Shown here one piece after another: positions 15,798 through 16,315 of a stretch of DNA of 64,000 nucleotides. This stretch comes from an uncultured Candidatus Binatia bacterium (GTDB lineage: Bacteria > Desulfobacterota > Binatia > Bin18): the NCBI GenBank assembly GCA_965200965.1, contig OZ241744.1:768001-832000 (forward strand), given 5' to 3'. The notes beneath the pieces are model-generated. The model searched no databases. It worked only from the letters and a program-made list of their open reading frames with translations, and was not told the origin of the DNA. A program made the position numbers and the translations under genes. The first letter of the stretch is position 1. Every line of letters begins with the position of its first letter.

Positions 15798-15959
15798 TAT
15801 GCTCTTCCTGTTGGTGAAGAGGGACGACGCCGAGCGGCACGCGGCAGCATCAACTCCACTATCCCGGTTCCAACAAGGGGCGGGCATGGAGACTGAGGCC
15901 AAGCGGGCCGACTGTGTCGCCTCACTCGGTGGGTCGGTGCCGGCGTTATGGGCCGGCGA

Positions 15960-16274
15960 TCAGGACAGTAGGGATGACCCAACAGGGGGTGCGCGTGGGG
16001 AGGCCGGGCGGCGATGGCTGGCCGGGGCATGGTCATCAGCCGCCGGGCATGGGGCCGAAACGGGAAACAGATGGGCAGAGACAGTGGGGGTCCGAGCCGC
16101 AAGGGCGGGGCTCTGCCCGCCGGCCAGACACAGCACACAGGCGTACCCGCCGGGACTGCCAACAGCCCCGCTATGGATGTGGGCGGCGGTGGCGGAAGAT
16201 ACCCATACGAGGGCGAGCAGGCTCAGCAGGGCGAGACTTTTCCACCACAGTACTGTGATCTGTTTTTGCTGCAT
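15960..16274 (-). CDS. DUF2946/CruR-like leader protein (TM/signal, HxH, CxxC, C-terminal RAPP)
   Basis: 104 aa from ATG 16274: hydrophobic N-terminus, AHIH, CVLC (16128-16139), SPRAPP (RAPP 15984-15995) followed by 7 residues and the stop; directly upstream of the outer-membrane protein gene. Confidence 0.8.
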   Translation of the reverse strand: MQQKQITVLWWKSLALLSLLALVWVSSATAAHIHSGAVGSPGGYACVLCLAGGQSPALAARTPTVSAHLFPVSAPCPAADDHAPASHRRPASPRAPPVGSSLLS

Positions 16275-16282
16275 GGATACTA

Positions 16283-16315
16283 TTGCAATTCTATAGTAAA
16301 TATATGTCGTGTCAA
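16283..16315 (-). promoter_or_regulatory. Sigma70-like promoter TTGACA-16-TAGAAT overlapped by a Zur-like box
   Basis: Minus strand TTGACA (16310-16315), then TAGAAT; box TTGCAATTCTATAGTAA at 16283-16299 shares the flank ATACTATTGC with the ZIP site. Confidence 0.6.

Follow-up and report, generated by a model that had tools for sequence, protein, structure and literature searches.

The accounts of published systems given here follow the accessible parts of the cited sources. CruR (Bp2923, DUF2946/PF11162), located ahead of bfrG in Bordetella pertussis (PMC9426467), is the first gene of an uptake operon, senses copper in a Rho-dependent manner, has a 45-nt 5' UTR and carries an export signal that is dispensable; its CxxC lies 44-45 residues ahead of a terminal RAPP, and the cruR-bfrG spacer is 162 nt long. 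The 45 residues from CxxC to RAPP are kept to one or two, a +5 insertion impairs regulation (Roy 2022), and ribosome arrest on CruR has been demonstrated by toeprinting (PMC12992588). CutF, located ahead of cutO in Rhodobacter capsulatus (PMC9973294; bioRxiv 10.1101/2025.02.05.636593), is an exported leader with a Cys/His site that exerts translational control by unmasking a downstream Shine-Dalgarno sequence; it senses periplasmic copper, stalls at PPP with the metal present (the opposite polarity to that predicted below), melts a nearby stem-loop and needs its signal peptide. SecM, ApdA and ApdP (PMC10951233) share RAPP-type arrest, in which the stall exposes a downstream ribosome-binding site (RBS), but they monitor protein export, control sec/yidC genes and have no metal site. 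The gene for ZrgD (DUF2607/PF10795) is the first of the Zur-repressed zrg operon of Vibrionaceae; this operon is zinc- and Zur-regulated, and ZrgD is described as a protein of unknown function (PMC9817125). Caulobacter CC2720 (PMC4176598) is a DUF2946-type gene at the first position of a Zur-controlled operon, the Zur-activated czrCBA-zntA efflux operon, and no leader function is proposed in the accessible part of that paper. According to Roy et al., no riboswitch has been described for copper or zinc, and peptide leaders fill the copper gap. A metal-sensing leader switch of this kind has been experimentally tested so far only for copper, and no zinc-responsive arrest leader was found in the literature searched; uORFs of this sort do appear in the source tables of PMC12992588, with no discussion of zinc in its accessible part, and the supplements of that paper and of the bioRxiv preprint could hold more zinc-linked cases.

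The sequence-only reading of the window, the whole 64,000-nt stretch of a Candidatus Binatia genome analysed here, had proposed a RAPP-type arrest leader ahead of a zinc-uptake operon and a two-tier circuit with a cytoplasmic repressor. Our own overall interpretation, a metal-released arrest leader acting as a second switch on a predicted zinc-uptake operon, is tentative and falls just short of an even chance, and its parts are of very different strength. The features concerned are as follows.

18600..19046, plus strand: Fur-family regulator gene (the genome has two), in synteny with the operon among relatives
16288..16315, minus strand: sigma-70-type promoter-like site (TTGACA 16315-16310, 16-nt spacer, TAGAAT 16293-16288)
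16283..16299, no strand assigned: palindromic operator, a de novo motif with the consensus TTGCAA-N5-TTGCAA, overlapping the leader -10
15960..16274, minus strand: 104-aa leader ORF, predicted metal-sensing ribosome-arrest peptide, within a 197-aa stop-to-stop call (15960-16553)
16185..16244, minus strand: hydrophobic segment containing A-x-A, a predicted Sec signal peptide whose removal would leave A-H-I-H as the new N-terminus
16173..16181, minus strand: H32-I-H34 (HxH), invariant in 20/20 orthologs
16128..16139, minus strand: C46-V-L-C49 (CxxC), 44 residues upstream of the arrest Arg
15984..15995, minus strand: R94-A-P-P97 arrest motif, followed by 7 residues to the C-terminus
15979..15986, minus strand: candidate anti-RBS formed by the codons of Pro97-Val98-Gly99 (complement of 15814-15807)
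15798..15959, minus strand: 162-nt spacer ending in the RBS region of the next gene, with a local hairpin at 15802-15821
14139..15797, minus strand: outer-membrane protein (OMP) gene, directly 3' of the spacer
13100..14128, minus strand: ZnuA-family binding protein with three His ligands; the acidic fourth ligand is missing from its usual place
12699..13103, minus strand: MerC-family membrane protein
11953..12702, minus strand: ABC ATPase, ZnuC/AztA-like
11099..11956, minus strand: ABC-3 permease, ZnuB/AztB-like
11049..11065, no strand assigned: second operator copy, 22 nt upstream of the ZIP gene
10287..11027, minus strand: ZIP (ZupT-like) transporter, with the second operator copy upstream

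The N-terminal transmembrane or signal segment, AHIH, CVLC and C-terminal RAPP ascribed to the 104-aa ORF were all found where they had been read. Its N-terminus is hydrophobic (best 17-residue Kyte-Doolittle mean 2.0), and alignment relative to the first His of 138 sequences gave Ala/Val at -4 in 73% and Ala at -2 in 54%, which suggests that the signal is cleaved two residues ahead of this His. The AlphaFold model of the leader (pLDDT 75, pTM 0.40) contained helices at residues 3-31 and 47-53 only. R[AG]PP stands at the end of 44 of the genome's 31,737 stop-to-stop frames, and 6 of these 44 contain CxxC; by eye, the leader was the only one of the six with a signal-like segment. Its dN/dS values were 0.25-0.78, below 1 in all 21 within-genus pairs, and the stretch was free of indels in the assembled contigs of 4/4 public runs. 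We regard it as almost certain that the leader is a real coding ORF. A single-base difference at window position 16016, present in three public runs of one study, alters the linker residue His87, outside the motifs. An overlapping plus-strand frame of 261 codons was rejected as a gene, since the six relatives examined do not maintain it as an open frame, and an Rfam search of positions 9000-20000 gave nothing credible.

Membership in DUF2946, which an HMM search was to decide, did not hold at the strict cut-off: PF11162 was the only match of the window leader, at 11.8 bits (E 0.41) against a cut-off of 23.7 bits, and the leader is therefore not filed as a DUF2946 member. The same profile matched 13/20 orthologs at E<=1 (best 0.0018) and, with E<=0.001, 18 sequences out of a wider set of 123 relatives, and a DUF2946 cluster stood at rank 10 (score 0.95) among the leader's Atlas neighbours. 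The likeness to CruR and CutF as a RAPP leader was borne out by the conserved motifs and by a Cys-Arg spacing of 43-44 residues, compared with 45 in CruR. The leader shares with the CruR family the CxxC-RAPP spacing, the N-terminal export signal, the first operon position and the long spacer, equal to that of cruR-bfrG, and its predicted polarity is also the same (stall = ON, metal = release); the genes downstream, however, are of zinc type instead of copper-homeostasis genes. It further departs from CruR in its invariant HxH, near-leaderless mRNA, Fur-family operator, family-wide helix between stall site and RBS and sub-cut-off DUF2946 score, and from CutF in its RAPP, its uptake genes and a masking strand that lies within the stall-site codons. 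As in the known RAPP peptides, a small exported uORF has a conserved R[A/G/S]PP close to its C-terminus.

Like the leader, ZrgD is about 100 aa long, begins with a hydrophobic stretch and has a His-rich site, a Cys placed 44 residues ahead of R[A/S]PP, an operator near its start and a zinc-uptake gene downstream; it differs in having HxxC instead of CxxC, a proteobacterial-type palindrome and ZrgA downstream. A His-rich HxxC at 44 residues from R[A/S]PP was present at all five DUF2607 loci over the Pfam cut-off in 401 Pseudomonadota genomes, and ZrgA followed in 2/2 scanned. PF10795 (cut-off 24 bits) had no match in the window genome, leader included, and matched 4/20 orthologous leaders weakly; profile comparison with the five ZrgD sequences gave 93% for the broad leader family and 9.9% for the narrow Binatia profile. 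Pairing of stall site and RBS at the five ZrgD loci had z values of -4.3, -0.7, -1.1, -1.6 and -2.0. It was also noticed that a locus of Pseudomonadota (L154, genome G279) has a DUF2607-like CxxC leader below the cut-off ahead of an OMP that by eye resembles the family of the window OMP.

A survey of the neighbourhoods of homologues, which the sequence-only reading had called for, was made by retrieving related loci with the downstream OMP as the query; all counts given here are inflated by kinship among loci. The OMP, whose closest named relatives are from Candidatus Binatia, was present in 50/61 genomes, and the 30 OMP loci fetched carried a leader in 20 cases, a truncated leader in 2 and none in 8. 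Although the 20 orthologous leaders are only 20-80% identical to the window leader, M1, H32, H34, C46, C49, R94, P96 and P97 are invariant among them, so that HxH, CxxC and R[A/S]PP are retained throughout (RAPP in 13, RSPP in 7), with a Cys-Arg distance of 44 in 18 and 43 in 2. RSPP is partly permissive for arrest according to the accessible part of PMC12992588. A search with the leader profile matched 29/251 genomes of the class, and the broader family comprised 324 cluster representatives (50% clustering, E<=0.001). Among the best 150 of these 324, RxPP was present in 148 (RAPP 102, RSPP 23, RGPP 15, RPPP 7, RTPP 1; none in 2), a Cys-Arg spacing of 43-46 in 142 and HxH in 137. Leaders, some with CxxH, were also found ahead of the same OMP in records of Methylomirabilis, Thermodesulfobacteriota, Myxococcota, Planctomycetota and Entotheonella, and one leader terminates in HGPP instead of RxPP. 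At L073:2121-3033 and L078:7341-8119 two leaders stand back to back, one heading the OMP operon and the other standing ahead of exported, His-rich proteins that have no Pfam match. At L074 and L075 (leaders at about 9030-9515) the same leader type precedes a TonB-dependent receptor gene, frameshifted at L074, and then ExbB/TonB-like genes. The leader at L111:5250-5533 is frameshifted in its N-terminal part.

The promoter with a nearly absent 5' UTR described by the sequence-only reading was recovered: the site matches the consensus at 11/12 positions (2 promoter-like sites versus 0.9 expected in shuffles), and 13 nt separate the -10 from the leader ATG, which predicts a 5' UTR of about 6-8 nt without a Shine-Dalgarno sequence. 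TTGAC was located 37-45 nt upstream of the leader start in 29/38 leader loci, and the very short 5' UTR is therefore conserved. The Zur-like box has its counterpart in a predicted palindromic operator over the promoter that co-occurs with a Fur-family gene, its Zur identity being a prediction. The motif was obtained by an expectation-maximisation palindrome search of 44 upstream regions from which the window locus had been left out; in the 3.6-Mb genome the best site was that at the leader -10 and the second-best that upstream of the ZIP gene, the latter being present in the closest relative as well. Genome-wide, the 19 sites at >=15 bits were not above column-permuted controls (2-32), and thus the rank of the two sites is the sole informative part. 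One of the two Fur-family genes of the genome lies 2.3 kb from the operon in the window and adjoins the operon in many relatives; the best models for its product were PerR and Fur, not Zur, all below cut-off. Judging from these sequence relations, the Fur-family protein of the window is likely the repressor that binds TTGCAA-N5-TTGCAA, a box not found in the literature searched for such an operator.

In a tally of 31 leader loci from genomes searched for the Fur-family ortholog (27 tallied and four box-less loci added, one corrected by hand), the box (>=11 bits) was present in 15/16 with a Fur-family ortholog versus 2/15 without, the two box-bearing genomes without an ortholog match being 87% and 84% complete. 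Genomes G016, G037, G040, G041, G042, G049 and G058 (95-100% complete) have the leader with neither box nor ortholog match. Conversely, G002 and a clade belonging to another genus have promoter and box directly upstream of the OMP gene and no leader; the box was present in 7/7 leaderless promoters scored and in all 10 additional leaderless loci of Binatia type. A tree built from 24 ZnuA+ZnuB rows required two leader changes, and a single leaderless clade was rejected (p-AU 5e-40); the leader has been lost twice independently. At L133 there was no leader within the 1.4 kb examined and no box upstream of the provisional start, and one alphaproteobacterial locus is leaderless with a palindrome upstream (by eye), which we take to be of the proteobacterial type. 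Since relatives have the leader only, the repressor only or both, the two look interchangeable, and the simplest inference is that they report the same condition. Of the proposed two-tier circuit, the presence of both layers in this genome thus stood, but the arrangement is not obligatory, as many relatives have one tier only.

The genes behind the leader bear out the zinc-type operon that had been claimed, OMP-znuA-merC-znuC-znuB with the ZIP gene following. A TonB-dependent receptor would have a plug and a 22-strand barrel; the OMP had no Pfam match to a plug or barrel, and its single-sequence structure model (pLDDT 39) was unusable; its Atlas neighbours included a 'zinc-regulated' cluster (nearest) and a Porin_O_P cluster. 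In a Vibrio, according to the accessible part of its source, zinc limitation induces a gene of the former name 1000-fold, the tie to the OMP being the cluster name. The best structural relatives of the binding protein were ZnuA and AztC, the best NCBIfam matches of the transporter genes were AztA/AztB/AztC and ZupT, all below cut-off, and a CobW/COG0523 gene stands behind the same box in a relative. From this gene content, zinc is a rather likely candidate for the leader's signal. Within the OMP gene, tandem 18-bp repeats at about 14763-14870 encode five HADEDE units in a His/Asp/Glu-rich segment whose length varies among relatives.

The output of the leader was sought in the spacer. The 162-nt length and the CTCTTC/GAAGAG hairpin over the OMP Shine-Dalgarno sequence were as the sequence-only reading had them, and the hairpin dominates the equilibrium model of this genome (3' arm about 90% paired). 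As a conserved switch, however, this hairpin was rejected: its 5' arm is not shared by the closest relative, the distance from the stall site and footprint to the hairpin is about 170 nt, and the spacer region folded no better than shuffles (z -0.55). Pairing was then assessed between the 30 nt from the Arg codon and the 24 nt upstream of the next start, cognate versus permuted partners, with downstream starts set by hand in 7/38 loci and in 1/14 held-out loci and otherwise by the best Shine-Dalgarno energy; L102 and L105 were removed from the held-out set as duplicates and L111 because of its frameshifted leader without an assigned start. A first test with 20 loci was marginal (p 0.034). With 29 deduplicated loci, cognate pairing had z -5.7 and none of 50,000 permutations was as good; the best pairing window fell at the stall site in 11/29 loci versus 2.1 expected, and p was <=0.1 under a synonymous-codon null in 17/29. 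By offset, the permutation z peaked at 0, at -15 (-3.6) and at +45 (-3.3), other offsets ranging from +0.9 to -1.8, and pairing against three control targets gave no signal. Against composition shuffles, the Stouffer z at offset 0 was -8.4 in the first set (seven other offsets, -1.9 to +1.4) and, in held-out loci of other groups and phyla, -3.9 (9 loci) and -4.8 (14 loci), the signal being limited to this offset in both sets. When partners were permuted across the held-out loci, the result lacked positional specificity, z reaching -3.35 away from offset 0. A modelled ribosome footprint reduced the energy needed to open the RBS from a mean of 11.4 to 8.7 kcal/mol, with no drop for a control footprint, and opened the RBS by >1 kcal/mol in 15/29 loci versus 3/29 for the control; the other 14/29 had no effect of this size. 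These results point to a SecM-like unmasking of the next gene's RBS across the family, where the anti-RBS output probably operates.

For this genome the same output is possible but rather doubtful. An 8-bp helix can form between 15986-15979 and 15814-15807, and the Pro97 and Val98 codons on its leader side are invariant in 7/7 genus members and complementary to conserved sequence upstream of the OMP start. Its occupancy in the equilibrium model is 7%, and the footprint changes the RBS opening energy from 4.6 to 4.4 kcal/mol (3.1 with the 5' side covered too); in the closest relative the opening energy rises under the footprint.

By analogy with CruR, ApdA and ApdP, the switch could work as follows. 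As cytoplasmic zinc falls, the Fur-family protein would leave the operator and the near-leaderless mRNA would be made. A ribosome translating the leader would arrest with Pro96 in the P site and cover the Pro-Pro and following codons, which are otherwise predicted to pair with the RBS region of the next gene 100-250 nt away, so that arrest would mean ON. Metal would join HxH and CxxC into a His2Cys2 site outside the tunnel, probably at or in the translocon; the resulting folding would pull on the chain and release the arrest, the helix would re-form and the uptake genes would be OFF. The ribosome exit tunnel holds about 30-40 residues. With Pro96 at the transferase centre, HxH lies 64-62 and CxxC 50-47 residues from the stall site, distances that allow a sensing site at the translocon but do not require one, because CruR works without its signal peptide (CutF does not). 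By comparison with the known arrest peptides, the leader very probably arrests ribosomes, and there is a good likelihood that it controls the downstream gene in cis; whether the sensing site is outside the cytoplasm is evenly poised.

Alternative signals were weighed against zinc. The same arrest switch could respond to copper, as cross-protection of a zinc importer, or to nickel, cobalt or manganese: both tested relatives, CruR and CutF, sense copper through Cys motifs, cluster A-I binding proteins carry manganese too, and an SCO gene lies directly upstream of the leader in this genus. His-only relatives are linked to nickel/cobalt genes in the accessible part of PMC9973294. The SCO neighbour, however, is limited to the genus, has a further gene between itself and the leader in two relatives, and was ruled out as part of the module; the downstream genes are of zinc type, CxxH and HxxC variants occur at the same Cys-Arg spacing, and Met is rare in the sensor segment (15/138 sequences), so another metal appears unlikely. 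That the arrest serves to sense secretion capacity or the formation of periplasmic disulfides (SecM-like or by thiol redox) instead of a metal is highly improbable; a signal peptide with RAPP is indeed the design of a Sec monitor, and 57/138 sequences have a second moderately hydrophobic stretch in the linker, but HxH is invariant, single-Cys variants exist and metal-uptake genes lie downstream in the annotated loci.

The zinc-responsive leader with RBS unmasking has also to be set against other outputs. In a CruR-like arrangement in this genus, the stalled ribosome would shield a C-rich rut and its release would lead to Rho-dependent termination in the 162-nt spacer, the same length as in cruR-bfrG. 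The rho gene is present, C exceeds G around the stall site of this genome (18:7 and 13:7), the family C/G ratio climbs to 2.0 at the Arg codon and RBS masking is weak in this genus; with Rho present and the stall region C-rich, a CruR-type output could thus operate in this genome. Nevertheless, the C-richness follows from Pro/Ala/Ser codons, the invariant Pro97 and Val98 codons are complementary to conserved pre-OMP sequence and the family-wide pairing is locus-specific, and we hold this output to be decidedly unlikely, although Rho termination and RBS unmasking are not mutually exclusive. A reading without any switch, in which the peptide serves as a short exported protein that binds metal, or as a leader fading in this genome with its job passed to the repressor, would fit the predicted cleavable signal and the two losses where the repressor is present; box loci also have weaker stall-site:RBS duplexes (mean -13.0, n=8, versus -20.0 kcal/mol, n=30), a difference confounded by GC and kinship. 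A secreted chaperone, however, needs neither a fixed Cys-Arg distance nor a terminal arrest motif nor the first position, and a fading leader is at odds with intact motifs and dN/dS below 1 in 21/21 pairs, which makes this reading very unlikely.

Beyond this locus, the leader might represent a widespread class of zinc-sensing arrest peptides (His2Cys2 or His3Cys, 44-residue tether, RAPP) that sense extracytoplasmic metal during export, can replace Zur and include zrgD. The replacement of Zur is proposed because near-complete repressor-less genomes keep the leader and leader-less lineages keep the repressor, and we consider so broad a class a doubtful proposition. If it were true, bacteria would have in it their missing post-transcriptional zinc sensor, translation of a peptide of about 100 residues would be the step at which many phyla gate zinc uptake, zrgD would gain a function and the fixed tether would be a compact metal-to-force sensor.

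Several further observations were made near Fur-family genes. At the leaderless loci L081:9200-9500, L083:8644-9789 and L084-L087, the Fur-family and OMP genes are separated by a COG0523 gene, intact or decayed, with a conserved GC-rich inverted repeat ahead of it, and at L081:5760-8537 a 925-aa His-rich predicted exported protein without a Pfam match adjoins the Fur-family gene. In the 3' part of 18832-19443 of the window, a lone ORF end follows the Fur-family gene and reads, we presume, like ribosomal protein L24; a shadow frame at about 19571-19954 presumably reflects a minus-strand gene for a further ribosomal protein. Palindromes of the TTGAAAAT type are clustered outside the window, at G000:C1:117340, 117842, 123100 and 127974; we take them to be classical Fur boxes, probably for the other Fur-family gene of the genome.
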